Below the pieces are notes generated by a model, which did not search any database, was not told the DNA's origin, and was given only the letters and a program-made list of their open reading frames with translations. The position numbers and the translations under genes were made by a program. Positions 14,627 to 63,548 of a stretch of DNA of 64,000 nt are shown in pieces. The number at the start of each line of letters is the position of its first letter. Position 1 is the stretch's first letter. The DNA lies in NCBI GenBank assembly GCA_041750655.1, contig JBGSYZ010000007.1:41493-105492 (forward strand). Reading direction: 5' to 3'. Source of the stretch: Minisyncoccia bacterium. Its GTDB lineage: Bacteria > Patescibacteriota > Minisyncoccia > Phycocordibacterales > UBA918.

Positions 14627-16786
14627 ATGGCGAGGAAATTTCCAATCGAAAAAATGCGTAACTTCGGTATTGTAGCGCACGTTGATGCTGGTAAAACTAC
14701 CACTTCTGAGCGGGTACTTTTTTATACCGGTATGAGCCACAAAATCGGTGAAGTACACGATGGTGCTACTGTTACTGACTGGATGGAGCAAGAGCGAGAG
14801 CGTGGTATCACTATTACCGCTGCCGCTATCTCTTGTAACTGGACTAAGACCATGGTGGAAGATCGTACCTCAGACAACCTAAAGTTTGCGTTTAATATTA
14901 TTGACACTCCCGGTCACATTGACTTTACGGCTGAAGTAAAGCGTTCCATGCGCGTACTTGATGGTGCTGTAGTGGTATTTGACGGCGCAGCCGGCGTAGA
15001 GCCACAAACTGAAACCAACTGGGGGTATGCTGACGAAGCGGCTGTTCCTCGCCTCTGCTTCATCAATAAGATGGACAAACTTGGTGCCGATTATGATGCT
15101 TCGATAAAATCAATTGAAGACAGACTAAGTAAAAAAGCTGTTCGTATCCAACTCCCAATCGGACGCGAAGACACTCTCTCGGGTGTGGTTGATCTCATTA
15201 CTATGAAAGCGTATCGCTTTGGCGGTGAAATGGGTATGACAGTAACTGAAGAAGACATTCCTGCAGATTTAGTTGAAGAAGCTACCAAGCGCCGAGCCGA
15301 AATGATAGAACGAGTAGTAGAACATGATGATGTACTCATGGAAGCCTTCCTCGAAGGAAATGAACCTTCAATGGAAGACCTTAAAAAGACACTTCGTAAA
15401 GCGGTCATTGCCAACGAAATTTTTCCAGTCCTTACTGGTTCAGCTCTTAAAAATATTGGTGTGCAATTGGTACTCGACGCAGTGGTTGACTATCTGCCAG
15501 CGCCAACCGATTTACCACCGGTAGTTGGTATTAATCCAAAGACTGACGAAGAAGTCACTCGTAATCCTTCAGACGAAGACCCATTTGCTGGTTTAGTATT
15601 CAAACTGCAAGACGATAAATTCGTTGGTCAGCTCGCGTTCTTCCGGGTGTATTCTGGAAAAGTGAGTGCTGGTAGTTACATTCTTAACTCAAGTACTGGC
15701 AACAAAGAACGAGTAGGACGAATCGTGCGACTCCAAGCAGACAAGCGAGAAGAAGTGGATGAAGTATACGCTGGTGAAATTGCGGCAGCAGTAGGGCTTA
15801 AAGAAATTAAAACCTCGCATACTTTGTGTGACCAAGACAAGCCAATTATCCTTGAAACCATTACATTCCCAGAACCAGTGGTAGCAGTGCGAGTAGAACC
15901 AAAAACCAAGAATGACCAAGAAAAGATGGGTGTAGCTTTACGACGTCTGTCAGACGAAGACCCAACGTTCAAGGTTTCCACGGATGAAGAAACAATGGAA
16001 ACTATTATTGCTGGTATGGGTGAGTTACATCTTGATATTCTCGTCGACCGAATGAAGCGAGAGTTTGGTGTAGAAGCTAATATCGGTCAGCCGCAAGTGG
16101 CCTATCGAGAAACTATTCAACGCGAAGCTGAAGCTGACCACAAGTACGTGAAGCAGTCGGGAGGTCGTGGACAATATGGACACGCCAAGATTATTATTCG
16201 TCCGCTTAAGCCTTTAGCAGAAGATGAGACGGTTGCTAAGAACGTAACTCGAGAAGATCACTTTGAATTCATCAACAGTATCAAGGGAGGTGTGATTCCG
16301 GCCGAGTACATCCCAGCAGTCATGAAAGGTTGTAAGGAAGCAATGACTCGCGGTTTCGTAGCTGGTTACAAAATGGAAGACGTGTCAGTAGAGCTCGTCG
16401 ATGGTTCATACCATGATGTAGACTCGAGTGAAATTGCTTTCAAACTAGCAGGTATTCAAGCTTTCAAAGAAGCAGCGGCGAAAGCTGGTCCAGTTATTCT
16501 GGAACCAATTATGAAGGTAGAAGTACGAACACCAGATGAATACATGGGTGATATTCAAGGTAATATTTCATCTAAGCGTGGTCAGATTGAAGGCTCTGAA
16601 GAATTGGGAGGGAAGACTATCGTTAATGCTAAAGTGCCGCTATCAGAAATGTTTGGCTACACCAACACACTTCGATCTATGACTCAAGGACGTGCGTCTA
16701 TGACCATGGAGTTTGATCACTACGAAGTAGTGCCACCAAATGTCGCTGAAGATATTAAGAAGGCAAGAGGCGTAAAGAGTGAGTAA
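14627..16786 (+). CDS. fusA: Elongation factor G
   Basis: [35 protein letters not shown] and full-length EF-G similarity. Confidence 0.95.
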
Positions 16787-17058
16787 CCTCACTCTTTACG
16801 GAGGTTGCCTAGCATTTTCGTAGAAAATGGTAGGCAAACTGTACAGATCCTGTAAGGATTTAAAGCTGAACAGTTAAAGCGTTAGCTTTAACTGCCTTCA
16901 CGAGACGGAGCGTTATGAGGAGCGCATTTACTAACGCGACGAATCGCGAGTCCGGGGAGAAAGTACTTAGTAGAATTTATGTGAGACAAAAATTATACTT
17001 AGTAACTTGACCCTGAAAGTGAGTAGCCTTACTTTTTACAGACCTTGCTTAATCAAAA
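16787..17058 (+). other. Highly structured intergenic region downstream of fusA (candidate ncRNA / processing element)
   Basis: 15-bp hairpin TTGCCTAGCATTTTC...GAAAATGGTAGGCAA, perfect 10-bp hairpin CAGTTAAAGC-GTTA-GCTTTAACTG, and a segment homologous to 33560..33690. Confidence 0.35.
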
Positions 17059-17092
17059 ACGACCGGCGCCTTAGGGCGCCGGTCGTTTTAGT
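17059..17092 (+). terminator. Rho-independent terminator
   Basis: ACGACCGGCGCC-TTAG-GGCGCCGGTCGT followed by TTTTA. Confidence 0.7.
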
Positions 17093-17132
17093 TGGGGATA
17101 GTCATTTATTGTCAACAAATGTGGAGTAGAAT

Positions 17133-17585
17133 ATGTATATGGAACAGAATGAGGAAAATGAAAGTTTTCCACCTCAAATTGATGAATCTGAGTACAAAAT
17201 GCCAGAATCTAGCTTTGGAGTTACTACTTCAAAAAGTATTTTTCCTTGGCCGGTTATTTTTGTGGTTATTTTCTTGCTGGTACTACTCACTGGGCTAGGT
17301 TTTTATATTTACATGGGAATGAGTCACACTCCTGCTACAATTTCAGATACAAATCTTGAACCAGTGTCAGAAAATTTATCTGAAACAAATAAAAGTGATT
17401 CAGAGGATATTTCACCTGAAATGATTGCAAAAATGCAATCCATGCAGCGAGATACAATGGTTACTGATGAGGATGTTGCGCGTATGGAATCTATGCAACA
17501 GGAAGCTCCAGATCAAGAGATTGATCAGGAGGTATTAGACCGCATGCAAGCGATGAATCCAGACGTTTCATTACCAAATCCATAA
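17133..17585 (+). CDS. Single-pass membrane protein with acidic Met/Gln-rich C-terminal region (hypothetical)
   Basis: Central TM helix (WPVIFVVIFLLVLLTGLGFYIYM); repeated MQSMQ / MESMQ / RMQAM motifs. Confidence 0.4.
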   Translation: MYMEQNEENESFPPQIDESEYKMPESSFGVTTSKSIFPWPVIFVVIFLLVLLTGLGFYIYMGMSHTPATISDTNLEPVSENLSETNKSDSEDISPEMIAKMQSMQRDTMVTDEDVARMESMQQEAPDQEIDQEVLDRMQAMNPDVSLPNP

Positions 17586-17608
17586 TTCGTTATTTTAATT
17601 TTATAAAT

Positions 17609-18049
17609 ATGAGTAAAAATATAACTATGACCTACACACGTTCACTTTCACAAATTTTTGTTTTAGGAGTCGCTTTACTAATCTTGTTTAGTTACCAGTA
17701 TCTGGGGGCGGCCTGGACCAATCCTCCAAGTTCACCAACCAGCAATAATGTAGACGCGCCGATAAATGTAGGTACAGATCCTCAGATTAAGCTAGGTGAC
17801 ATTACCGCTGTACATCAAAAAGCAGGCTCACAAATGTGGTCACCTGAATACTGTGATGAAAACGGCGCTAATTGTATTGATCCAGCGACAGCAGTTTTTA
17901 TAAATGCGGCTTGTAGTGATGGTAATATACTCTATAAAACTGGTGGTTCGTGGACATGTGTGAACAATGTAACCAACTTATTCCCGTCTTGTTCAAACGG
18001 ACAGGTTTTAATGAAGGACGGTGGAGTGTGGGGTTGTACTGATAAATAA
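17609..18049 (+). CDS. Secreted hypothetical protein
   Basis: N-terminal TM/signal segment; six Cys; 6-nt spacing to the next gene (operon). Confidence 0.45.
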   Translation: MSKNITMTYTRSLSQIFVLGVALLILFSYQYLGAAWTNPPSSPTSNNVDAPINVGTDPQIKLGDITAVHQKAGSQMWSPEYCDENGANCIDPATAVFINAACSDGNILYKTGGSWTCVNNVTNLFPSCSNGQVLMKDGGVWGCTDK

Positions 18050-18055
18050 ATCTTC

Positions 18056-19174
18056 ATGAATTTTGCATATACCATTCGAAATTCAGCCTTTATTGCCTTT
18101 GCTATTTTGTTTGTTTACTTAATTTCTCAAACAACTTTCGCGCAATCTGTAACCAGTACGCTTGGTGGCTACGCCTGGAGTAGTACTATTGGGTGGCTAC
18201 AAATGAGCGGAGTTGCTTCTGATAGCTCAATATACGGAGTAAATCTTGACTCCTCTTCAAATCTGAGTGGCTACGCCTGGAGTAGTACTATTGGGTGGGT
18301 GAAATTTGGTAGCCTGTCTGGTTGTCCAGCTACCTCAAATTGTGATGCCCGTATAGTCAGTGGGGGTGAATTAAGTGGATGGGCTCGCGCTTGTACAGTA
18401 TTTCAATCAGGATGTAGCGGAGCTTTAAAACCAGATACAGCAACAGGAGGTTGGGATGGTTGGATATCACTCAATTGTAATAACACATTGTCGTGTGGTA
18501 CTAGTAACTATAGATGGAAACTAACTGGCTCTACTATTTCAGGGTATGCGTGGGGTGGCAGTGTAGTCGGTTGGTTATATGCCGATAATATTGACCTAGG
18601 ACTATCGCCTGCTACCGTAAATATTGGTGTACGTACACTAGGTTCTAGTAACCCGTTTACCTATACTTCACCATATCCACTTAGTGATGGTGAAGAAATT
18701 GAAGTAGGCTGGGATTCAGCCGACGCCTATGAGTGTTTTTCTACTCAAGGTAGTGGATTTTCAACCAGCGCTCAACTCAATGGTGTTGATGATACAGTTA
18801 GTGAACCAGCTAGTGGTTCCACAGAGACCTTCACAATATTTTGTCGTGGTATAGCAGGTGATGGGGCAGATTCCATTACTGTTGAATACCCTGTATCACA
18901 GGTTAGTATTTGGACTGAACCTATAATAACCGAACTAAACAACACGGTTATGATTTATTGGGATGTGACTGGCAATGATCCAGCAGCCTGCTCAATATCA
19001 GGACCTAATGGCTTTGGGATGACTTTAATCGCTGGCGAAGAATCCGGCTCGGTATCGAGTGACCCAATAGAAGGAGAGTCAGACTACACCATCACGTGCG
19101 CCGCCAACGGTATTAATCCAGCTGCTAATAATGCTGTTAAGGTCCGAGTGAATGCTAGTTCAGTAGAATCATAA
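18056..19174 (+). CDS. Secreted repeat protein (GYAWSSTIGW repeats)
   Basis: Signal peptide (AFAILFVYLISQTTFAQS); three GYAW(S/G)(S/G)(T/S)(I/V)GW repeats; exact 32-nt DNA duplication at 18165..18197 and 18267..18298. Confidence 0.45.
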   Translation: MNFAYTIRNSAFIAFAILFVYLISQTTFAQSVTSTLGGYAWSSTIGWLQMSGVASDSSIYGVNLDSSSNLSGYAWSSTIGWVKFGSLSGCPATSNCDARIVSGGELSGWARACTVFQSGCSGALKPDTATGGWDGWISLNCNNTLSCGTSNYRWKLTGSTISGYAWGGSVVGWLYADNIDLGLSPATVNIGVRTLGSSNPFTYTSPYPLSDGEEIEVGWDSADAYECFSTQGSGFSTSAQLNGVDDTVSEPASGSTETFTIFCRGIAGDGADSITVEYPVSQVSIWTEPIITELNNTVMIYWDVTGNDPAACSISGPNGFGMTLIAGEESGSVSSDPIEGESDYTITCAANGINPAANNAVKVRVNASSVES

Positions 19175-19480
19175 GTTTTGACCAAGTAAATTTAAAATTG
19201 GATAGCGTTAAATTTATTTTTTCTAAATATTTTTCTTGCACAGAGATTATTAATTTTGCTTTGCTATTAAAAAGCAAAAATAACTTGTCAAAAGTGCACC
19301 ACTCCTGTAACATACCGTGCACTACATTGCGCTTTTTCGGTGTGGGGATTCGCATTTTTATGCGTTTACTTATTTGAAGCGTGCTAGGGATGAGGCAAAT
19401 GTTCTCGCCTTCATCTCTGGTAGGTTTTATACCAATATAGCCAGGTGGTATTTATTAGTTCATTAGTATAAAAATTACTT

Positions 19481-32947: not shown

Positions 32948-33493
32948 ATGCCTATGGAAATGCTAAAAGACAAAATGAATACTGCGTTTGATGCCATGAA
33001 AAAAGATTTCGGGTACACAAACGTTATGCAAACCCCAAAGATAACTAAGGTAGTAGTTTCAACTGGTACTGGTAAAGTTGATGATAAAGGTAAGTTGGAA
33101 ATCATTAAAGATCGTCTTGCTACTATCACTGGTCAAAAGGCCTCACCACGACCAGCCAAGCAATCAATCGCGTCCTTTAAATTGCGTGAAGGCGATATTA
33201 TTGGGTATCAAGTGACCTTGCGAGGGAAGCGTATGCACGATTTCCTTAATAAGCTTATTCACGTAGCATTACCACAGACTCGTGACTTTCGTGGTCTTAA
33301 GGTAACAGCTATTGATGAGATGGGTAATATTACTCTGGGTATTAAGGAACATTCTATCTTCCCCGAAACTGCTGATGAGGACTTGCGAGATATTTTCTCT
33401 TTAGCTGTGACTATTGTGACTACAGCTAAGAATAAGGCTGAAGCCGAGGCGTTGCTGAGACATATTGGCTTGCCGTTGCAAAAAGTCGAATAG
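32948..33493 (+). CDS. rplE: 50S ribosomal protein L5
   Basis: ATG 32948 in frame with track ORF 32867..33493; similarity. Confidence 0.85.
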   Translation: MPMEMLKDKMNTAFDAMKKDFGYTNVMQTPKITKVVVSTGTGKVDDKGKLEIIKDRLATITGQKASPRPAKQSIASFKLREGDIIGYQVTLRGKRMHDFLNKLIHVALPQTRDFRGLKVTAIDEMGNITLGIKEHSIFPETADEDLRDIFSLAVTIVTTAKNKAEAEALLRHIGLPLQKVE

Positions 33494-33706
33494 ACTTTTT
33501 AGGAAGCAAACTGCTTTGCTTCCGGCAACGGTAAGAAGCACAGCGATGTCACAGCTATTCCTAATGCTGTGACCGCGAGCTGGGGTCGACAGTACTTACT
33601 ATAATTTGCACGAAGTGAAAAATTATAGTTAGTAACTGGTGACAGCCGTTGCAGAAGCCAGTTGAAGAAGTGACTAAATAGTTTTAACTATACATACTAA
33701 GTGAAA
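33494..33706 (+). other. Structured intergenic element downstream of rplE, homologous to the fusA-downstream element
   Basis: GGAAGCAAA-CTGC-TTTGCTTCC and GTCACAGC...GCTGTGAC hairpins; ~70% identity over ~85 nt with 16950..17040 (shared AGTACTTA and AAAATTATAnTTAGTAACT cores). Confidence 0.35.
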
Positions 33707-33745
33707 GAACGGCGGCCCCTAGGGCCGCCGTTCTTTCGTCGTCTT
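33707..33745 (+). terminator. Rho-independent terminator after the rplE block
   Basis: GAACGGCGGCCC-CTA-GGGCCGCCGTTC followed by TTTCGTCGTCTTT. Confidence 0.7.
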
Positions 33746-33765
33746 TGTGATTCCAATATTAAAAA

Positions 33766-33795
33766 ACGGGCGGGGCTGTTGCCCCGCCCGTTAAA
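33766..33795 (-). terminator. Rho-independent terminator for 33808..34593
   Basis: ACGGGCGGGGC-TGTT-GCCCCGCCCGT with T6 on the minus strand. Confidence 0.7.
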
Positions 33796-33807
33796 AGAGC
33801 AGTAGTA

Positions 33808-34593
33808 CTATTCGGCCGGTAATTGATTGGCGGCGGTCATCGAGCGCAGCTTTTCAACAAGAGTATGAACCTCCTCGCCGACCTCACTTGGCGCCGGTTC
33901 TTCCATTTTTTGTTCAACCATAAAGTCAATGATTTGGTTAACAGCCGACAGTAGTTCGCGTTTTTCCGATAGCCGCATTAGGCCACCGTTGGTATCAAGG
34001 TGTTGGAGTAATTCTTCCAATAACTTTTCCATCTGGCCAAGAACAGCGGTTGCTTCATCCTCTTCTTTCTGTAAAGCTTGGGCGAGACTGAAACAACCCT
34101 TATTTCTTAGGAAATTATCCTTTGTACCGGTTACATATCGATACATGGCCGTTTCCACCACTGCCGCTAGGTTTAGTTCAAGGAACTCAGTTCGGGCGGC
34201 TGTGGTGACTGATGTACTCATGCCAAAGCACATAAGGGCCAGCAAAGCGGGTAAAAGCATAATCAGAGCCAAAACCAGAACGCTGAACCAATGTAGTTCA
34301 AACGGAGCGGTGTGCCACCACTCGTAGTACGTACTAGACAATTCCAGCACCAAATAGCCGGTGACCAGGAATAATCCTGATAAGCACCAACCGCCGAATC
34401 TCCACCATTTTCCAGGCTTCAGCGCCTGCTTGATGTCGTGTTGGCGCTGATATTGGACACGCTCATGTGCTTCCTGTGCAGTCAGCGGCCGCACTTCCTG
34501 TATAACAGTGGTCATTTTCACCCTTCCCAAGGTTGATTTTCCATATAAAACAATACCTTGAAAAATTTTATAGTCAATATACAGATGATACAA
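33808..34593 (-). CDS. Membrane protein with coiled-coil C-terminal domain (hypothetical); GC higher than surroundings
   Basis: Probable start at internal M (MTTVIQEV...); two TM helices; inserted between rplE and rpsN. Confidence 0.4.
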   Translation of the reverse strand: MYHLYIDYKIFQGIVLYGKSTLGRVKMTTVIQEVRPLTAQEAHERVQYQRQHDIKQALKPGKWWRFGGWCLSGLFLVTGYLVLELSSTYYEWWHTAPFELHWFSVLVLALIMLLPALLALMCFGMSTSVTTAARTEFLELNLAAVVETAMYRYVTGTKDNFLRNKGCFSLAQALQKEEDEATAVLGQMEKLLEELLQHLDTNGGLMRLSEKRELLSAVNQIIDFMVEQKMEEPAPSEVGEEVHTLVEKLRSMTAANQLPAE

Positions 34594-34769
34594 ATGGCGA
34601 TTAGAGGTTGCTATTTATACATATTCAGGTATAGTAGCTCGCATTACGACCAGGAGAGATTTTGGTGGTGAAGGTGAGCTTTGGCGTTAGCCATTGCGAG
34701 CCGGATTATTAGGAGACAAGGTCGTCAATTCTAGACGAAACCAGTCTCAAACATTAAATACTTCATTCA

Positions 34770-34955
34770 ATGGCACGAAAGTCTATTATTGCGCGCGCGA
34801 AGCGCGAGCCGAAGTTCAAAAGCCGCGTAGTTCATCGTTGCTTTAAGTGTGGTCGAAAACGAGGTTACATGCGTGACTTCGATATGTGTCGAGTTTGCTT
34901 CCGCGAAGCGGCACTAGAGGGACATATACCAGGTATAAAGAAATCATCATGGTAA
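34770..34955 (+). CDS. rpsN: 30S ribosomal protein S14, type Z (zinc-binding)
   Basis: 61 aa, [21 protein letters not shown]4 motif. Confidence 0.9.
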
Positions 34956-46748: not shown

Positions 46749-47312
46749 ATGGGTGCCAAGGATTGGACCGAGGAAAAAATCTCTAAATTACAAGAAATGT
46801 GGCTGAACGGAAAGCCCGCTCGGTACATTGCTTCAGAGCTAGGTGCTCCTATTACTCGAAATGCAGTAATAAGTAAAGTAATGGCTCTTGGTATTTATGA
46901 AAAAAGAAGGAGTACCTGTCACTCTCTTTCAGTAAAGCGTGCACCAACTCAAAGACTTGGTGGTCTTAGACCTAAACCAAGGTCTAAAAAAACAAGGTGC
47001 AAAAAAGACCAAGACAAGCCAGACTGTAAAGTGTTGAGGACAGGTCAATTGCTGAATAAGTCTGGTTGGTTAGATGATGATGCGGTTAAACATCGAGTTC
47101 AACAGCTTGAAGGAGAAGCCCTCAAGATACCAGTTGAGAAAAGGTGTGGTGTCATGGATTTGACTGATAACACCTGTCGTTGGTCAATTGGAGACCCAGC
47201 GTCTGAAGAATATTTTTTCTGTGGTAAACCAGTTTGTAAAAAAGCTAATGGAGCACGTTCACCGTACTGTGCCGACCACACAGAAACTGCGTATCATCCC
47301 CAGAAGGTATAG
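46749..47312 (+). CDS. GcrA-like cell-cycle regulator family protein
   Basis: N-terminal WTEEKISKLQEMWLNGKPARYIASELGAPITRNAVISKVMALGI; C-terminal CRWSIGDP...FCG...YC..H matches the GcrA C-terminal domain. Confidence 0.6.
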   Translation: MGAKDWTEEKISKLQEMWLNGKPARYIASELGAPITRNAVISKVMALGIYEKRRSTCHSLSVKRAPTQRLGGLRPKPRSKKTRCKKDQDKPDCKVLRTGQLLNKSGWLDDDAVKHRVQQLEGEALKIPVEKRCGVMDLTDNTCRWSIGDPASEEYFFCGKPVCKKANGARSPYCADHTETAYHPQKV

Positions 47313-48769: not shown

Positions 48770-49162
48770 TTATTTCTTTTTCTGTGAACACTTTGTGCAA
48801 CGACAGGGTTGGCAGTGATCTAGCCAATACTCTTGGCCGTAATCATAGGTAATTTCCTCACCATTTTTGATATAGTTCAGGGCTCTGATTAGTATCTTTT
48901 CTTCTTCTTCGTCTATTTCGGCTTCACAATTGGGGTCACATGAATGGTTTATATACCGAGAAGTATTTGAGCGATCTTTACCATCGATAATCCAGTCATC
49001 ATCTAAAGTAAACAGGTACTTGCCGCCCCGCCTATCACCTTCAGCAGTGGTAATTCTCTCTCCAGTGTATTCGATAACCACGGTGTCTGGTTTAATATCT
49101 TCGTGTGCAAACAATCCTAAACCAGCCTTTGAGCGTTTCACTTTTACTTTTGGAAATTTCAT
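48770..49162 (-). CDS. SET-domain protein (putative protein-lysine methyltransferase); track ORF extends to 49192
   Basis: GLGLFA...EYTGE...NTSRYINHSCDPNC...GEEITYDYG plus post-SET Cys cluster (CQPCRCTKC). Confidence 0.7.
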   Translation of the reverse strand: MKFPKVKVKRSKAGLGLFAHEDIKPDTVVIEYTGERITTAEGDRRGGKYLFTLDDDWIIDGKDRSNTSRYINHSCDPNCEAEIDEEEEKILIRALNYIKNGEEITYDYGQEYWLDHCQPCRCTKCSQKKK

Positions 49163-49220
49163 AACGATTATTTTTACCAGGATACATAGCATTTTACAAA
49201 TGTGATGTGGGATAACAAAA

Positions 49221-58974: not shown

Positions 58975-59025
58975 AAAAAGCTCAGGCCGGGCATCCTAGC
59001 GGATGCCCGGCCTATGTGTTGTTGT
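58975..59025. terminator. Bidirectional rho-independent terminator
   Basis: AGGCCGGGCATCC-TAGC-GGATGCCCGGCCT flanked by A/T runs. Confidence 0.7.
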
Positions 59026-59035
59026 ACAGATTTCT

Positions 59036-59740
59036 TCACACTGGGTTGAGAATAAAAACCAAGCTGGTTATTGATGCCCCTACTGAGAGGATGCAATGAC
59101 CTGACTCAGGTGTTTCCCACACGTTCCAGATAAGTTTCCCTTTTCCCGAAGTGTAGAAGTACAGCTTACCGATGAAGCAAGTCGTCGCGACCACAATCCA
59201 GAATCCGGTCCAGCTCAGAGCGTCAACCCCGATAGCGGCAAACCCGAAGGTAACCACCAGAGCGAAACTGAGTGATCCGGTTGCAAAGAAGAACAAAGCG
59301 CCAACCAGATAAGCTTGTTTGGGTTTAAGCCAGCTAATCCTAGCGGCCAACTTTTCTTCCCACCCGTACCATTTACTAATCGCCGACAGAGTCATGAGTG
59401 ACAGAATCATCGGCAATGCCCACGGTTCGTGGTAAATGAGTGGCATCGGAATGACTATCACGTACCAGCTAATCATGGTCTGGTCCACGAAACGCAAGAA
59501 CCGACTAGGTCGCCACGTATGATACGCAGCGCTGCTGTTATATAGGCAGATTTTGATTAGTATGTACAAAACCAGCCCGGGAGACATATGGCCCCACAAC
59601 AGATACGACACAAGTATCAATAACGATATATAGGCGAGGTGACAATATACCACTATTGGGTGTCTTGGATGATGAAGGTCGGGGTTCTCCTCGTTGTGAA
59701 CGGGGAGGCCAGCCAGCGTAAATTGCAAAGAACGCAGCAT
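59036..59740 (-). CDS. Polytopic membrane protein, possibly hemolysin-III/PAQR-like
   Basis: 7 predicted TM helices; NEENPDLHH near the N-terminus and SSAAYH motif. Confidence 0.35.
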   Translation of the reverse strand: MLRSLQFTLAGLPVHNEENPDLHHPRHPIVVYCHLAYISLLILVSYLLWGHMSPGLVLYILIKICLYNSSAAYHTWRPSRFLRFVDQTMISWYVIVIPMPLIYHEPWALPMILSLMTLSAISKWYGWEEKLAARISWLKPKQAYLVGALFFFATGSLSFALVVTFGFAAIGVDALSWTGFWIVVATTCFIGKLYFYTSGKGKLIWNVWETPESGHCILSVGASITSLVFILNPV

Positions 59741-59865
59741 CAGACTCTCCTCCTAAGATTGAGATTTCTGTATCCAATTTGTATTTTGCTACTATTATAT
59801 ATTTTGTCAAGTTTTTTATGCACAGTGGTCAAAAAATAAAAAATACAAAAGTAAATGTAAAAAGA

Positions 59866-59890
59866 AAGGGCCCGCGCGTACGCGCGGGCC
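59866..59890 (-). terminator. Terminator for 59891..60541
   Basis: GGGCCCGCGCG-TA-CGCGCGGGCC next to the stop; T-run on the minus strand. Confidence 0.65.
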
Positions 59891-60541
59891 TTAAGTGTTT
59901 GAACGAAGATGACTGGCAATTTTTTCCAGCACTTCACCGTCTGTGTCAGTTACCGGTAAGTCATGCCCACCCGGTACTTCCAGTAGTGTACCTGATACCC
60001 GAGCAGCCACTTCACGCACGTGTGATGGTGGTGTGATGGTGTCTTCGTTGGCACTCACCACGAGCACGTTTTCAAGGTTTTTACCCACCGGCACACTGCC
60101 GACGGCCGCCGACATGAGCGATGTCAGTGACTCGGGCCGTTTTGGCCAGACTGTCAGCATCTGGCGGATCGCTCCAAACGGGTTGCTCGCTAGGTAGACA
60201 GCTTCATCGAGATCAAACCGGCTACAGTTACCACCGATCATCCCAGTATTTACGAGAGCGGTGCCACGCACCAATCCGTTAGGTGCCAGCTGAGCGACGG
60301 TGTAAGCCACCAATGCCCCGAGCGAGTGCCCGCACAGAAGTACTGGTGTACCTAGCGTAGACAGCTCTTCGAGAATAACTCGGGCTCGAGACTCGATACC
60401 ACCGACCAAATCCATGTTGGCTCCAACCAAGCACGTGTGGTGCTGATCGCGTGTTTCCGGCCACAAGTAGTCCGGATGTCGAAATGCTCCCCCAATCATC
60501 GCGATGGGGAGCGAGCGTTTCTTGCGCATAGCTTCCTCCAT
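59891..60541 (-). CDS. Alpha/beta-hydrolase (GHSLG esterase/lipase-type); high GC
   Basis: LLCGHSLGALVAY nucleophile elbow; ~55% GC. Confidence 0.6.
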   Translation of the reverse strand: MEEAMRKKRSLPIAMIGGAFRHPDYLWPETRDQHHTCLVGANMDLVGGIESRARVILEELSTLGTPVLLCGHSLGALVAYTVAQLAPNGLVRGTALVNTGMIGGNCSRFDLDEAVYLASNPFGAIRQMLTVWPKRPESLTSLMSAAVGSVPVGKNLENVLVVSANEDTITPPSHVREVAARVSGTLLEVPGGHDLPVTDTDGEVLEKIASHLRSNT

Positions 60542-60706
60542 TCATAAAGCGTAGGGATTAATCTTATTGTGTCGGCAATCTGGGTGGGCGTCAATCAGAA
60601 TGTGGTACTTGTGGGGCAGCTTTTTTAATGTAAGAACTGGTCTGACTGAAATGGAGTGTGCTAATTTCTTGAAGGTGGTTGATTCATGGTGAGGTAAAAA
60701 GAAAAG

Positions 60707-60752
60707 CCCCGCGAGTTGTGAAGTCTCGGGGACTTCTCTTGCGGGGCTTGTT
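60707..60752 (-). terminator. Terminator for 60759..61250
   Basis: AAGCCCCGC...GCGGGGCTT long stem, T-run on the minus strand. Confidence 0.55.
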
Positions 60753-60758
60753 GGTTGA

Positions 60759-61250
60759 TTATTGGTGCTCTGACTTCAGGTGGTCGATGAAGCTGTCGAG
60801 CATTTCAGGCGACATAGCTCCAAAGACCGACCCTTGACACACGTACGAGGTTGCACCGAGTCGACGAAACTCGTTGTAGTGAAACCCCATCATGGCGGCA
60901 AAGGCTTGTACTTGTGCAGGTGTGACGTCGACAGACCTTGGCTTGTGCGCCTTGACACGCACCAGTTCGAGCCAGTTGTAGGCACGTAGACAAGTTGCGA
61001 AGGCATGGTCCCTGAGATTGCCCATGTTTTCTGGCAGTCCGTGCTCTTTCAACAGGGCTGCAGCACGAGTCATGTTCTCGAGCCGATATCGCAAAGAGTT
61101 CGGGCAGGGCCAGTGTTGGTCGATGCTCTCGTAGACGATACGGGCGACTTTCCAGCGCAGTACGCAGTTCATCTCCGGCTTGTGTTTCGTAATCTTCCCG
61201 AAGATCGCTTGCGTACGGATCTTTCGAGGAAAGGGTGGGATGTCCATCAT
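60759..61250 (-). CDS. Hypothetical protein; high GC
   Basis: 163-aa ORF with GC-rich codon usage. Confidence 0.4.
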   Translation of the reverse strand: MMDIPPFPRKIRTQAIFGKITKHKPEMNCVLRWKVARIVYESIDQHWPCPNSLRYRLENMTRAAALLKEHGLPENMGNLRDHAFATCLRAYNWLELVRVKAHKPRSVDVTPAQVQAFAAMMGFHYNEFRRLGATSYVCQGSVFGAMSPEMLDSFIDHLKSEHQ

Positions 61251-61353
61251 TGGAAAGACCTCTTCTTTCTAGTGTTTCAGAATTAGTAAAATAATACATT
61301 AAATATTAAAAAAGTCAAATAGATTCTAATTTCCAAACATCTCTCCCTAATAC

Positions 61354-61420
61354 AGCAAAACGATCCTTATTTTATAAGGCTCGTTTTGCTTCAGATTTGG
61401 TGGAGATGGTGGAAACGAAC
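61354..61420 (-). repeat. Duplicated tmRNA 3'-terminal fragment plus its own terminator (att-like remnant)
   Basis: 61398..61415 TGGTGGAGATGGTGGAAA is identical to the true ssrA 3' end at 61615..61632; preceded on the minus strand by AGCAAAACGA...TCGTTTTGCT hairpin. Confidence 0.6.
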
Positions 61421-61614
61421 CATCAAGTTACTAACCAAAATATTTGTTGCCCAAATATTTTGCTAAGTACTTGCAGGCCCACCTCGCGGTTCACGGCATT
61501 TGTAAAGCCATGAACATCGCTGCGGTTGATTCGATTTCACGAAAGCAAAGTAGTTTGCTTTCTCACCATCTTCACCTAAAACACAAAACCACCCCAAAGA
61601 GGGTGGTCGTGTTT

Positions 61615-62007
61615 TGGTGGAGATGGTGGAAATCGAATCCACGTCCGAGAATGGTCACACATATGATTCTTCAATGCATAGCTACACTTTTAAGTTTTAA
61701 TATGATGATAGGAAGTGTAGCCAAAGCTCACCATATCTAGTTCGTACATCTCGGTTTCCTAGCCGAACAGTTTAGGATTCCGCAGTCTCATTTTTATTCC
61801 ACCCCACGCCACTTATGAGACTTCAGTGGGTGAAGCGTCGCTCCGGCCGGCGTTATTTACGCGAAAGCGGGTGCGAATCCAAACGCGTTAGCGTACGGAC
61901 TTGGTACAGATTTGTTTGCATCTATACGTGGTTGCCTTTTAACGAATGGCGACCAATTTCGACATTGCACATATGTATGGGTCAAACCGTCGATGCCTGT
62001 CATCCCC
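61615..62007 (-). ncRNA. ssrA: tmRNA (transfer-messenger RNA), 393 nt, one-piece
   Basis: 5' GGGGAUGACAGGCAUCGACGG... and 3' ...GGACGUGGAUUCGAUUUCCACCAUCUCCACCA (T-arm, acceptor, CCA); G3-U70 wobble in the acceptor stem; tag ORF GCA AAC ... TAA (61857..61919) after UAGAU encodes ANKSVPSPYANAFGFAPAFA; terminator ACCACCC...GGGTGGT plus U-run downstream; smpB upstream. Confidence 0.8.
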
Positions 62008-62036
62008 TGAAAAAGTCCGGGGGACTTTTTCAGTTG
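62008..62036 (-). other. Perfect 12-bp hairpin abutting the tmRNA 5' end
   Basis: CTGAAAAAGTCC-GGG-GGACTTTTTCAG. Confidence 0.4.
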
Positions 62037-62183
62037 AGCTCGGTGACTGTTCGAATTTTGGTCTGGTATCTTACCAGATGTATTCGAAAGGTATCGAACT
62101 TTCACTGAAGTCTGTAAGCAGACTCTTTCAGGGAATTTCAGTAGAAGAAAGTGGGGAGGCAGGGCGCCGCAGGCGCCCTGCAC

Positions 62184-62459
62184 TCATGTTTCTGGATTCG
62201 TATCAGGGTGGCCGAAGTTGTGAGACCTCGGCACAGTACCCGCAATTGCGAGGCCAATGTCTTCGTCGACAGTAGTCTGGTCGCCTGGGGGATTTTCAAC
62301 ATGATTGTCAGCGGTGTTGCGACCACCAGCAAAAGAAATTTCTTCAGATTCAGACAAGTTCGTCTGGACTCCAAAGCAGGCAAGAAGCCAAGCAAACCAT
62401 TTTGGCATGACGGGCATCATTCGGGCTTCAGCCATGAACGGATCTGTTTCTTGCTTCAT
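62184..62459 (-). CDS. Hypothetical protein (high-GC region)
   Basis: 91-aa track ORF; coding status uncertain. Confidence 0.25.
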   Translation of the reverse strand: MKQETDPFMAEARMMPVMPKWFAWLLACFGVQTNLSESEEISFAGGRNTADNHVENPPGDQTTVDEDIGLAIAGTVPRSHNFGHPDTNPET

Positions 62460-62729
62460 GCGACTGCTCCCGTACAGTCTTGTTTCACTAGGGTATTTTC
62501 TGCTTTGGTGGTGGCACAGTCGTTGTCGTCCATGTAGCCACTTTCACGCATTGCCATTTTGTCTTTTTCAGACAAATTTCGGCCATGCCCCAAAAGCACT
62601 AGCCAAGCCAGTGCACTCAAATTTCCATCCATTCCGTACACGATAGGTCCTCCCTCGTTTCTTCAAAAAATTTCAGTTACACACAGGTGGTGCGCAGGCC
62701 GGTGGGGTACCGGCCTGCGCGAAAGTTCA

Positions 62730-63074
62730 TCAGGCAGTCTTTTCTGCCCTCTTGCCGGACGGAGTGAGTTCTCCGAGTTCAAGCAAAACCCAAGCAATGA
62801 GCGACTCGTATAGCTCTTCGCGGTCGAGGTAAAGATTGACCGTGAGCTGGGCCAGGGTTTGGCGAGCTTTCTCTTCGGCGTAGTCTTCGGCCATCTCCAG
62901 GATATCATCCTGGTATTTTTCCTTGAGGAGACGCCACAGAAGCTTTCGAAGCTCCCTTTCTGGGTGTCCATTCAAATCTCGGTGTTCGTGAAGGAAAATG
63001 ACTTCGCATTTCTTTTTTGGGGGCATTTTTCTGTCCGTTTTTGGGTTGGGGTATGGCAGTTCACTCTGAACCAC
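62730..63074 (-). CDS. Hypothetical protein (high-GC region)
   Basis: 114-aa ORF with charged helical sequence. Confidence 0.3.
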   Translation of the reverse strand: MVQSELPYPNPKTDRKMPPKKKCEVIFLHEHRDLNGHPERELRKLLWRLLKEKYQDDILEMAEDYAEEKARQTLAQLTVNLYLDREELYESLIAWVLLELGELTPSGKRAEKTA

Positions 63075-63092
63075 CTGTATGTAACCAAAATT

Positions 63093-63548
63093 TTACTGAA
63101 ATTTCAAAGATCGTCTGAGCTCGCGCTCGGTGTCACGCTTTTTAATTGATTCACGCTTATCTGCCTTCTTTTTACCACGTGCTACAGCAATTTCAAGCTT
63201 GATAGTGCTCTTTTTATTATACAACGAAATAGGCACTATTGTCAAACCAGATTGTTCGCTCTGTTTGTACAGTTCAGCCAGCTGTTTCTTGTTCAAAAGA
63301 AGTTTTCGAGTACGTTCTGGATCGTAATCAGCGCTAACGTTCTTTTTTTGGAAGGCCGGGATACTGGAGCCAGTTAAAAAAGCTTCGCCACCACGAATTA
63401 CCACATGGGCGCCCTCGAGCTTGCCCTGGCCTTTTCGGACTGATTTTACCTCAGTACCAAGCAGCGAAATACCCGCCTCGTAGGTCTCAAGGATTTCAAA
63501 ATCAAAGTAGGCCTTTTTGTTGCTCACTAATGCCATAGGTGTGGTCAT
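63093..63548 (-). CDS. smpB: SsrA-binding protein SmpB
   Basis: Full-length similarity to SmpB; basic C-terminal tail. Confidence 0.9.
   Translation of the reverse strand: MTTPMALVSNKKAYFDFEILETYEAGISLLGTEVKSVRKGQGKLEGAHVVIRGGEAFLTGSSIPAFQKKNVSADYDPERTRKLLLNKKQLAELYKQSEQSGLTIVPISLYNKKSTIKLEIAVARGKKKADKRESIKKRDTERELRRSLKFQ

Follow-up and report, generated by a model that had tools for sequence, protein, structure and literature searches.

A folded 217-bp module behind the tmRNA gene of a Paceibacteria genome, with relatives at other gene ends

Introduction

Integration at ssrA, the gene for transfer-messenger RNA (tmRNA), is already known, as are duplication of the gene's 3′ tail and the occurrence of tandem and integrase-less elements at this site. 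The closest described system is that of the ssrA genomic islands (ssrA-GIs) of Dehalococcoides, which are marked by direct repeats of 20 bp of ssrA, can stand in tandem, use a serine integrase and include members without an integrase, termed cis-mobilizable (McMurdie et al. 2011, PMC3146451). Here we analyze a 64-kb stretch of DNA from a Minisyncoccia bacterium (contig JBGSYZ010000007.1, positions 41,493 to 105,492; hereafter the window, with coordinates counted from its first nucleotide), in which the tail of ssrA recurs 217 nt downstream of the intact gene. On balance we lean, at about an even call, to the view that these 217 bp are a non-autonomous miniature integrative module, which lies ssrA-proximal in a small cassette array and was inserted by a recombinase acting in trans. 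Specifically, we describe the anatomy of the module, the family to which it belongs and its fold, its presence and absence among relatives, a swap of the tmRNA T arm, the variable cargo downstream, and the same signature at the ends of fusA and rplE.

The features shared with the Dehalococcoides islands (PMC3146451) are several tandem elements downstream of ssrA in a strain-variable region, the many elements that lack an integration module, and a reverse-strand serine recombinase beside attL, an arrangement also seen at one related locus considered below (L042). In terms of what marks a cis-mobilizable member, both tail copies in the window are intact and the module between them contains no open reading frame (ORF). 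The Dehalococcoides islands are, however, kilobases in length and carry genes, and neither an inverted tail copy nor a conserved folded core is described for them (PMC3146451), whereas the module considered here measures 217 bp, belongs to a family also present at tRNA, fusA and rplE ends, and occurs in a window in which no recombinase was found.

Genomic islands in tRNA and tmRNA genes in general (Islander database, PMC4383910) split the gene on integrating and themselves make it whole again, with the displaced fragment left as a marker of their far end. The locus in the window likewise has an intact gene and a second tail at its far boundary; unlike those islands, which encode their own tyrosine integrase, it has none and is one to two orders of magnitude smaller. 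The tycheposons of Prochlorococcus (Hackl et al., bioRxiv 10.1101/2020.12.28.424599) similarly form islands by tRNA and tmRNA genes, with newer integrations pushing older ones inward and partial tRNA remnants left in place, but they carry tyrosine recombinases and replication genes, and their partial tRNAs are scars rather than parts of a folded module. Neither the literature searched nor Rfam 15 yielded a description of a 180-nt covarying ORF-less module, of target-tail palindromic junctions, or of a spread over tmRNA, tRNA, fusA and rplE ends in Paceibacteria, and that literature likewise contained none of mobile elements at ssrA in the candidate phyla radiation (CPR)/Patescibacteria.

The tmRNA gene and its duplicated tail

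An earlier reading of the letters of the window (the original prediction) had placed a tmRNA gene on the minus strand at 61615-62007. This gene is intact: ARAGORN recovers it with the tag ANKSVPSPYANAFGFAPAFA*, and Rfam family RF00023 matches it from end to end (model positions 1-374 of 374; 111 bits against a gathering threshold of 47, E=1.7e-42). The acceptor stem comprises 7 bp, with 5′ GGGGAUG paired with 3′ CAUCUCC, an encoded CCA, and the alanine-type G3-U pair that had been predicted along with the tag; the T arm reads GUGGA-UUCGAUU-UCCAC. The tag is present with its resume codon and stop, and like tags (..SPYANAFGFAPA[FVL]A) are seen in many relatives. For comparison, 160 related loci were examined, 80 from genomes and 80 from metagenomes (handles beginning with L), and their placement by SmpB assigns the source organism to Patescibacteria/Paceibacteria of the CPR, the best species-representative genome being 74% identical.

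The exact repeat of the tail (TTTGGTGGAGATGGTGGAAA) is 20 nt long, rather than the 18 nt first noted, and occupies 61396-61415 and 61613-61632; the duplication of the ssrA 3′ end and its spacing of 217 nt stand as predicted. Similarity extends to the T loop, to about 26 nt, if two 1-nt gaps are allowed, and the identity block spans the T loop to the 3′ end of the tmRNA. Integration in tRNA and tmRNA genes reportedly favors particular sublocations within the gene, as Williams is said to have described in 2002. Only two copies of the tail are present in the 64 kb, which is not the behavior of a generic repeat scattered over unrelated sites.

A chance repeat or an assembly artifact, in whose favor there is only the short size of the repeat, has a negligible probability. 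Chance alone would be expected to produce 0.02 matches to the 18-mer at up to 3 mismatches, the architecture recurs in dozens of independent genomes, and Logan contig L083 (22.9 kb, assembled independently from a public run) is 100% identical over the 3′ part of the tmRNA, the insert, the second copy and the next gene. An artifact private to the window's own assembly is excluded by this contig, which may share its sample with the window, so that a repeat-collapse error could be common to both.

Anatomy of the module

Read along the minus strand, the module runs in the order X, h1, first part of X′, P1, second part of X′, core, and X2. The first element, X, is the 3′ end of the tmRNA itself (61613-61639: the 3′ part of the T loop, the 3′ half of the T stem, the acceptor 3′ strand and CCA), and includes the first exact repeat copy at 61613-61632. 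Directly after ssrA lies h1 (61578-61614), an intrinsic terminator recovered by a terminator scan, with its stem at 61587-61608 and a U tract after it (-18.8 kcal/mol, z=-4), as had been predicted for the intact gene. The inverted tail copy X′ follows in two parts, of which the first (AGGTGAAGATGGTG, also given as AGGUGAAGAUGGUG; 61564-61577; inverted repeats I4 and I6, and folds) repeats the acceptor 3′ strand and CCA in inverted orientation with 12 of 13 pairs, and the second (GTGAAATCGAATC, also given as GUGAAAUCGAAUC; 61528-61540; inverted repeat I8) is an inverted copy of the T loop and the 3′ half of the T stem. The two are split by P1, a 23-nt hairpin at 61541-61563 in which 8 of 9 pairs show compensatory double changes over 19 sequences.

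The conserved core (61424-61527), delimited by alignment, covariation and a covariance model, is made up of a junction stem, whose internal loop is GA-rich (..AGCGAUGU / GCGAG..), the variable hairpin P2 and the long hairpin P3 (ACUUAG...CUUAGUAACUUG). X2 (61396-61421), identified by repeat search and holding the exact 20 nt at 61396-61415, forms the 3′ end of the module and its boundary to the next cassette. As bounded by the covariance model, the whole module or unit spans 61397-61578 (model positions 1-181; cmsearch 123.2 bits, E=1.5e-34, for a sequence that is itself in the training set). The 217 bp are accordingly a complete conserved module, contrary to the earlier view that most of an element had been lost from between the repeats, and the miniature element offered as an alternative in the original prediction is the better reading. 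That prediction made no mention of the inverted tail copy after the terminator, the covarying three-hairpin core, the copies at fusA and rplE, or the cassette array downstream.

The second tail copy is followed by hairpin h2 (61354-61390; 17-nt arms, -20.7 kcal/mol, z=-5). A separate terminator had been proposed here, of which the strong hairpin is confirmed but the terminator is not: the tail of h2 (GUAUUAGGG) is not a U tract and was not listed by the terminator scan, while homologues in relatives have U-rich tails. Together with a decayed inverted tail (GGGAGAGATGTTTGGAAATTAGAATC, 61322-61347), h2 makes up a hairpin module at 61322-61395 on the minus strand, supported by blastn matches of 83-86% identity to five related loci (L033, L023, L055, L062 and L007) and by profile search.

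In terms of folding, the unit alone reaches a minimum free energy of -78.7 kcal/mol (z=-7.8). An alternative fold joins X, h1 and X′ into a single hairpin of ~115 nt with P1 as a side branch (palindrome 61526-61641; -63.7 kcal/mol, z=-11). A second palindrome, of ~100 nt, arises from X2 together with h2 and the decayed inverted tail (61322-61421; -41.1 kcal/mol, z=-7.2). Because both of these fold, each tmRNA tail copy is seen to be the 5′ arm of a ~100-nt imperfect palindrome.

These palindromes invite comparison with the folded attachment sites of integron cassettes (attC) and with the folded attP of CTX phage and integrative mobile elements exploiting Xer (IMEX). ORF-less cassettes exist in integrons, and the likeness extends to small, mostly single-gene cassettes with ~100-nt imperfect palindromes at their boundaries that would fold, as single strands, into a duplex copy of the target; it is a matter of resemblance only. 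The attC core sites GTTRRRY (R′) and RYYYAAC (R″) have no match on either strand of 61300-61660, and with the core motifs absent, membership among integron attC sites was rejected. Neither intI nor another tyrosine recombinase was found in the window with Pfam and phmmer. Unlike integron cassettes, the next cassette here has a promoter-like site of its own, and no dif-like site was recognized.

A family of units with a conserved fold

In eight other genome loci the host's own tmRNA tail is repeated 170-230 nt downstream, and the segments between the copies are homologous. The evidence for their fold comes from a plain MAFFT alignment (A1) of 19 units with a 34-pair structure, controlled by slid pairing partners and 500 shuffles. 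Paired cells amount to 96.5%, against 32-44% with slid partners, and 128 cells are changed on both sides, against 9-21 in the slid controls. Double changes occur in 21 of the 34 pairs, and the covariation score of 0.61 (no more than 0.11 in slid controls) was reached in none of the 500 shuffles. Judged by these compensatory changes, the fold of the unit is under purifying selection.

A covariance model (R1) was built from the 19-unit alignment, with the tmRNA-linked unit of the window in the training set and the rplE and fusA copies outside it. It finds 33 same-strand matches in 27 of the 80 genome loci and 29 in 24 of the 80 metagenome loci. Among the 90 Paceibacteria tmRNA loci with enough flank, a unit begins 34-48 nt (median 40) after ssrA in 35, leaving 55 (61%) without a unit there. 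Tandem units are found at five loci (L008, L055, L002, L141 and L151).

Rfam 15 contains no match to the module; only the tmRNA passes the gathering thresholds, and nothing relevant appears at E<=10 in 61250-61660. The matches obtained in the region at permissive E-values were spurious miRNA-type hairpins and were discarded. An exact scan of metagenome contigs for the species-specific tmRNA tail found none, and an exact look-up of SmpB returned only two contigs of 3.4 kb, both ending before ssrA. Of two conserved 16-17-mers from the module with which viral contigs were scanned, one had 0 matches and the other 33, and since profile search finds the module in none of the 33, these were put down to chance.

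The strength of this covariation raises the possibility that the module is not mobile at all but a vertically inherited host or cis-acting structured RNA, a 3′ trailer produced by read-through from genes of very high expression (tmRNA, tRNA, fusA, rplE). X′ would then extend a terminator or processing hairpin, X2 would sequester X′ so that the acceptor stem can form, and the absences would be deletions between direct repeats. We regard this explanation, the main alternative to a mobile element, as possible, though doubtful. Strong covariation in three helices together with conserved purine-rich internal loops is what it would predict, as are the strand of the module, in every case that of the upstream gene, and its fixed spacing of 34-48 nt. 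The copies are old and diverged, with no near-identical pairs, and direct repeats of 20 nt readily lose the DNA between them, leaving what would look like an empty site. Nonetheless, a terminator with a U tract stands between gene and module, such that most transcripts should stop before reaching it, and the module is missing from the majority of tmRNA loci noted above. Divergence of the module correlates weakly with that of SmpB (rho 0.20), a value that does not separate vertical from horizontal descent.

The core loop, for example at 61478-61527, contains invariant letters, C-GGA-GC opposite GC-GA-G and then AUGU. Their arrangement suggests tandem sheared G-A pairs, possibly a kink-turn-like protein-binding site, which if so would argue for a role as RNA rather than DNA. 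A group I intron or other intervening sequence was considered and rejected, as the tmRNA model is complete without splicing, the terminator precedes the module, and no intron family matched.

Copies behind rplE, fusA and tRNA genes

Two further core copies are present in the window, both on the plus strand and on the strand of the gene they follow, as is always the case for units. The first (33502-33647; cmsearch 91.6 bits, E=3e-25) lies directly after rplE, identified by its Pfam L5 match, and is flanked by the direct repeats GCCGTTGCAAAA (33472-33483) and GCCGTTGCAGAA (33645-33656). The order at this site is GCCGTTGCAAAA, a small hairpin with a new stop codon, P1, the inverted copy GGCAACGG, the core, and GCCGTTGCAGAA, which runs on into an alternative L5 C-terminus (..PLQKPVEEVTK*). 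The module has thus truncated and replaced the C-terminus of L5 and left the old one behind, which is difficult to accommodate if it is merely an RNA trailer.

The second copy (16872-17016; 58.9 bits, E=1.2e-15) follows fusA, assigned by Pfam as EF-G. Here the direct repeats are diverged copies of the fusA 3′ end (16774-16808 and 17016-17048; ~33-35 nt, about 82% alike), and a small hairpin is again followed by an inverted copy of the preceding bases. In relatives, units also occur after tRNA-Ile (L002, three in tandem) and tRNA-Ala (L051), with an inverted copy that matches the last six bases of the tRNA. The length of the direct repeat therefore varies with the site, from ~12 nt at rplE through ~20-26 nt at ssrA to ~33-35 nt at fusA. 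A third tail copy was found neither after the fusA or rplE site nor at the distal end of the high-GC patch described below.

Three copies in 64 kb, each with direct repeats, about 150-190 nt in length, ORF-less, strongly folding and in relatives also tandem, would fit a non-autonomous transposon of the miniature inverted-repeat transposable element (MITE) type, with a transposase encoded elsewhere and a preference for terminator hairpins at gene ends. In ERIC, Correia/NEMIS, RUP and BOX elements, the terminal inverted repeats are characteristic of the family and the target duplications are short and of fixed length. The units resemble them in being short, ORF-less, multicopy, strongly folding and situated in transcribed gene-end regions, but differ in that their terminal inverted sequences copy the local gene tail and in that their duplications measure 12-35 nt. 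These differences are also what render a MITE quite unlikely here. The inverted sequences vary between the ssrA, rplE, fusA and tRNA sites, the flanking duplications range from about 12 to about 35 nt where DDE transposons give a fixed length, insertion is orientation-specific relative to the upstream gene, and no transposase was found in the window.

Both gene-end regions also hold other material. The spc operon is split between rplE and rpsN by 1.28 kb (33494-34770), in which the module copy and the displaced rplE 3′ end are accompanied by two strong hairpin terminators (33700-33795) and, on the reverse strand, by a 261-aa ORF (33808-34593) with a weak ARM-like match only. The gap between fusA and tuf measures 2.7 kb (16787-19480), and the module is followed there by two ORFs without a Pfam match (17133-17585 and 18056-19174) that may be inserted cargo.

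Cassette exchange downstream of ssrA

The sequence that follows X2 in the window is joined directly to the tmRNA at two related loci (L033 and L023, 83-86% identical) and follows units or other cassettes at three more (L055, L062 and L007). The directly joined loci support the earlier reading of the duplicated tail as the signature of integration at the ssrA 3′ end, and comparison of the locus in related genomes, which had been suggested as a check, revealed occupied, unoccupied and differently occupied sites. Even where the host tmRNA has another T arm, the decayed inverted tail of the h2 module belongs to the tail type of the window, and the h2 module has therefore moved between lineages.

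The h2 module is followed on the minus strand by a promoter-like TTGACT-16-TATTAT at 61291-61318, which is a consensus match only (10 of 12 positions in a consensus scan), and by a 163-aa ORF (60759-61250), the cargo of the next cassette, which has no Pfam match, was called as a gene on L083 and has a GC content of ~54% against a background of ~42%. This cassette is closed by a junction module designated type B (60606-60699, minus strand; ..CACTCCATTTCA..GCTGCCCCACA; nhmmer E=5e-22). Type B has 20 matches in 17 genome loci and occurs in further metagenome loci; in relatives the junction module is palindromic and ends ..AACTTGTAGTAAACTGCTCCAC (also given as ..CTGCTCCAC), the last bases of the tmRNA tail. 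The ORFs between junction modules are unrelated across genomes and include a Gp49/HigB-like toxin with a helix-turn-helix (HTH) antitoxin, a GNAT acetyltransferase, an SRPBCC protein, a UbiA prenyltransferase and several of unknown function. In the window, the array after the module would thus be composed of the hairpin module, the 163-aa ORF and the closing junction module, as cassettes without a recombinase, and it probably ends between 59826 and 60600.

The closest relative found (L117; SmpB 88%, tmRNA ~91-92% identical, same tag) has no unit. The distance from ssrA to the homologue of window 59826-58964 is 0.9 kb there, with an unrelated toxin-antitoxin cassette, as compared with 1.8 kb in the window. 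Moreover, 8 of the 17 positions of its T arm are different, whereas the remainder of the tmRNA diverges by 5.8% (P=1.8e-6). Because the T arm is swapped and a different cassette lies downstream, the 3′ end of the tmRNA has been exchanged together with the DNA behind it, which fits the original proposal that the incoming element supplies a new 3′ end. As judged from these alignments, the comparison shows the ssrA 3′ end of Paceibacteria to be a cassette-swapping hotspot at which the tmRNA T arm is exchanged as well. A T arm swapped between close relatives, and hypervariable surroundings in which the same junction modules enclose cassettes of unrelated content, are not what a vertically inherited structured RNA would lead one to expect.

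The 163-aa ORF belongs to a high-GC patch (59000-61300; 52-59%) with three minus-strand genes, the others being those for an alpha/beta hydrolase and a 234-aa membrane protein; the latter is kept in L117, but the 163-aa ORF and the hydrolase are not. A third shared junction module (..ATATAGAAATATGTAGAAATACATGGAAC..TTACTC..GGGTAAGC) stands after the tail core at L117:7064-7140, L017:8217-8290, L055:6105-6160 and L007:9185-9240, and typically precedes Gp49/HigB-HTH toxin-antitoxin cassettes. The longest array seen (L130:6092-9750) runs tmRNA, unit, hairpin module, type B, hairpin module, type B, second unit, type B.

The partner of the inverted copy

It was initially assumed that X′ pairs with X2 as a conserved closing stem, an idea abandoned when the comparison of 27 loci indicated that X′ follows the tmRNA's own tail. 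Specifically, in 22 of 27 tmRNA-linked units the part of X′ after P1 pairs better with the T part of the host's own tmRNA than with that of X2, and the mean duplex energy is -17.8 kcal/mol with the former as compared with -10.9 kcal/mol with the latter. X2 is often of a tail type other than the host's, being of window type in L002 and L151 and of L069 type in L053, and it looks like an older or foreign tail by this comparison. Since X′ follows the own tail and X2 is frequently foreign, the constant feature is the palindrome of tail, terminator and inverted tail. For a structured RNA these results cut both ways, in that X′ tracking the host tail in 22 of 27 loci is in keeping with it, whereas X2, if a folding decoy, should not be of a foreign type.

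A role for X′ as the primer-binding site of a retroelement using mature tmRNA was also considered and rejected, as X′ runs on into the genomic trailer (e.g. CCACGA in L007) and not into added CCA. Retrons, TIGR arrays, IS110 bridge RNAs and TnpB/IscB guide RNAs were considered and set aside; Pfam scans of the window ORFs gave no reverse transcriptase, recombinase or nuclease gene (the phmmer screen covered recombinases only), and the sense and antisense copies of the target cover one segment and pair together.

At L053:6585-7210 the tmRNA 3′ end seems degenerate and ARAGORN makes no call. Damage to the gene is one possibility, an obscured true 3′ end another. Behind the module at this locus, the second copy is a perfect tail of another lineage's, L069-like type.

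Recombinase candidates and the integrative model

No Pfam recombinase, integrase or transposase domain was detected in window ORFs of about 140 aa or more. In the 160 related loci, a crude phmmer screen of all ORFs with XerD, lambda Int and Hin sequences as queries gave only one recombinase match. This is a 667-aa large serine recombinase (Resolvase + Recombinase + Zn_ribbon_recom) at L042:6283-8523, which is encoded on the reverse strand and abuts the tmRNA 3′ end. With respect to the integrase gene that the original prediction had suggested looking for, none was thus found in the window, while a relative has one at ssrA itself. The L042 arrangement suggests a prophage or island integrated at ssrA, and a gene for a ClpP-like SDH protease is situated near the recombinase.

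The presence of a recombinase-bearing element at ssrA in L042, together with the direct repeat of the ssrA tail and the high-GC, foreign-looking genes just downstream, is in line with the main proposal of the original prediction, taken here to mean that the 217 bp are what decay has left of a classical island or prophage, kilobases in size and with an integrase. We consider this very unlikely, as 217 bp is full length for a family that is conserved at more than 50 loci, shares its ends throughout and has a fold under purifying selection, which would not be so for random deletion remnants, and the same module is found at other genes.

Our preferred model of a non-autonomous integrative module would operate as follows. 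A site-specific recombinase acting in trans would insert the module at the 3′ end of a gene, a candidate enzyme class being the large serine recombinases, as at L042 ssrA and the Dehalococcoides ssrA islands. The inserted DNA would bring a replacement 3′ end and a terminator, such that ssrA stays functional and the older tail is pushed downstream. The palindrome of tail, hairpin and inverted tail would serve as recombination site, as terminator, or as both, and the conserved core may be needed for persistence or mobility of the module.

Several observations weigh against this model, beginning with the scarcity of recombinases in the window and among the 160 loci. X′ matches the tail of the local upstream gene, be it tmRNA, tRNA, rplE or fusA, which a fixed element end would not do, and a simple Campbell integration therefore needs extra assumptions, such as template-switch correction of the palindrome or selection of the hairpin. 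The correction of palindromes by template switching is a known mutational process and could keep X′ matched to X; alternatively, the hairpin itself may be selected as recombination site or terminator. The maintenance of three hairpins by compensatory changes implies selection on a folded strand, which fits a functional RNA equally well. As it stands, the integrative model leaves both the match of X′ to the local tail and the compensatory upkeep of the three-hairpin core unexplained. In addition, the module copies across genomes and the three in the window are all well diverged, with no sign of recent movement, and no excised circle or empty-site allele of the same population was seen, the sole other assembly (L083) being identical.

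A more far-reaching possibility, prompted by analogy and in our estimation unlikely, is that tail, hairpin and inverted tail constitute a new kind of recombination site, in which a folded single strand of ~100 nt, DNA or RNA, would rebuild the duplex of the target 3′ end, with the ~150-nt covarying core acting as cofactor or recognition element of the enzyme. This would amount to an integron-like, integrase-remote cassette system on ssrA, tRNA genes, fusA and rplE, whose site is reprogrammed by copying of the target.

The genomes of CPR/Patescibacteria are tiny. The module, in which more than 20 pairs covary, is a recurrent feature downstream of the translation genes with the highest expression. 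If mobile, it would be among the smallest site-specific integrative modules, and one would have to ask how its inverted arm is made to match every target; if an RNA, it would represent a new, widespread non-coding class tied to tmRNA and tRNA gene ends. Either way, it offers a testable handle on genome plasticity in organisms that are not yet genetically manipulable. For annotation, duplicated tmRNA or tRNA tails and truncated ribosomal-protein C-termini in these genomes would be products of the module rather than assembly errors.

Gene neighborhood

The gene for the tmRNA partner protein, smpB (63093-63548, minus strand; Pfam PF01668, E=2.2e-51), is situated 1.1 kb upstream of ssrA on the same strand, an order that is kept in relatives, with the tmRNA downstream of smpB in 63 of the 80 genome loci. 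The 1.1-kb spacer between the two (62008-63092) has a GC content of ~50% against the ~42% background and contains patches 86-90% identical in L117; no convincing ORF and no Pfam match were found in it. A hairpin with a 12-bp stem (62007-62033) abuts the tmRNA 5′ end. ARAGORN reports no tRNA gene in the whole window, though the str, S10 and spc ribosomal region is covered.

Elsewhere, the segment 50468-56291 holds an operon of camelysin/TasA-like (Peptidase_M73) and SpaA-like proteins, together with a protein in which a SipW-type signal-peptidase motif was recognized by eye without a Pfam match; by these resemblances it is probably a surface-fiber or pilus system. The window also includes genes for a GcrA-like cell-cycle regulator (46749-47312) and a SET-domain protein (48770-49192).

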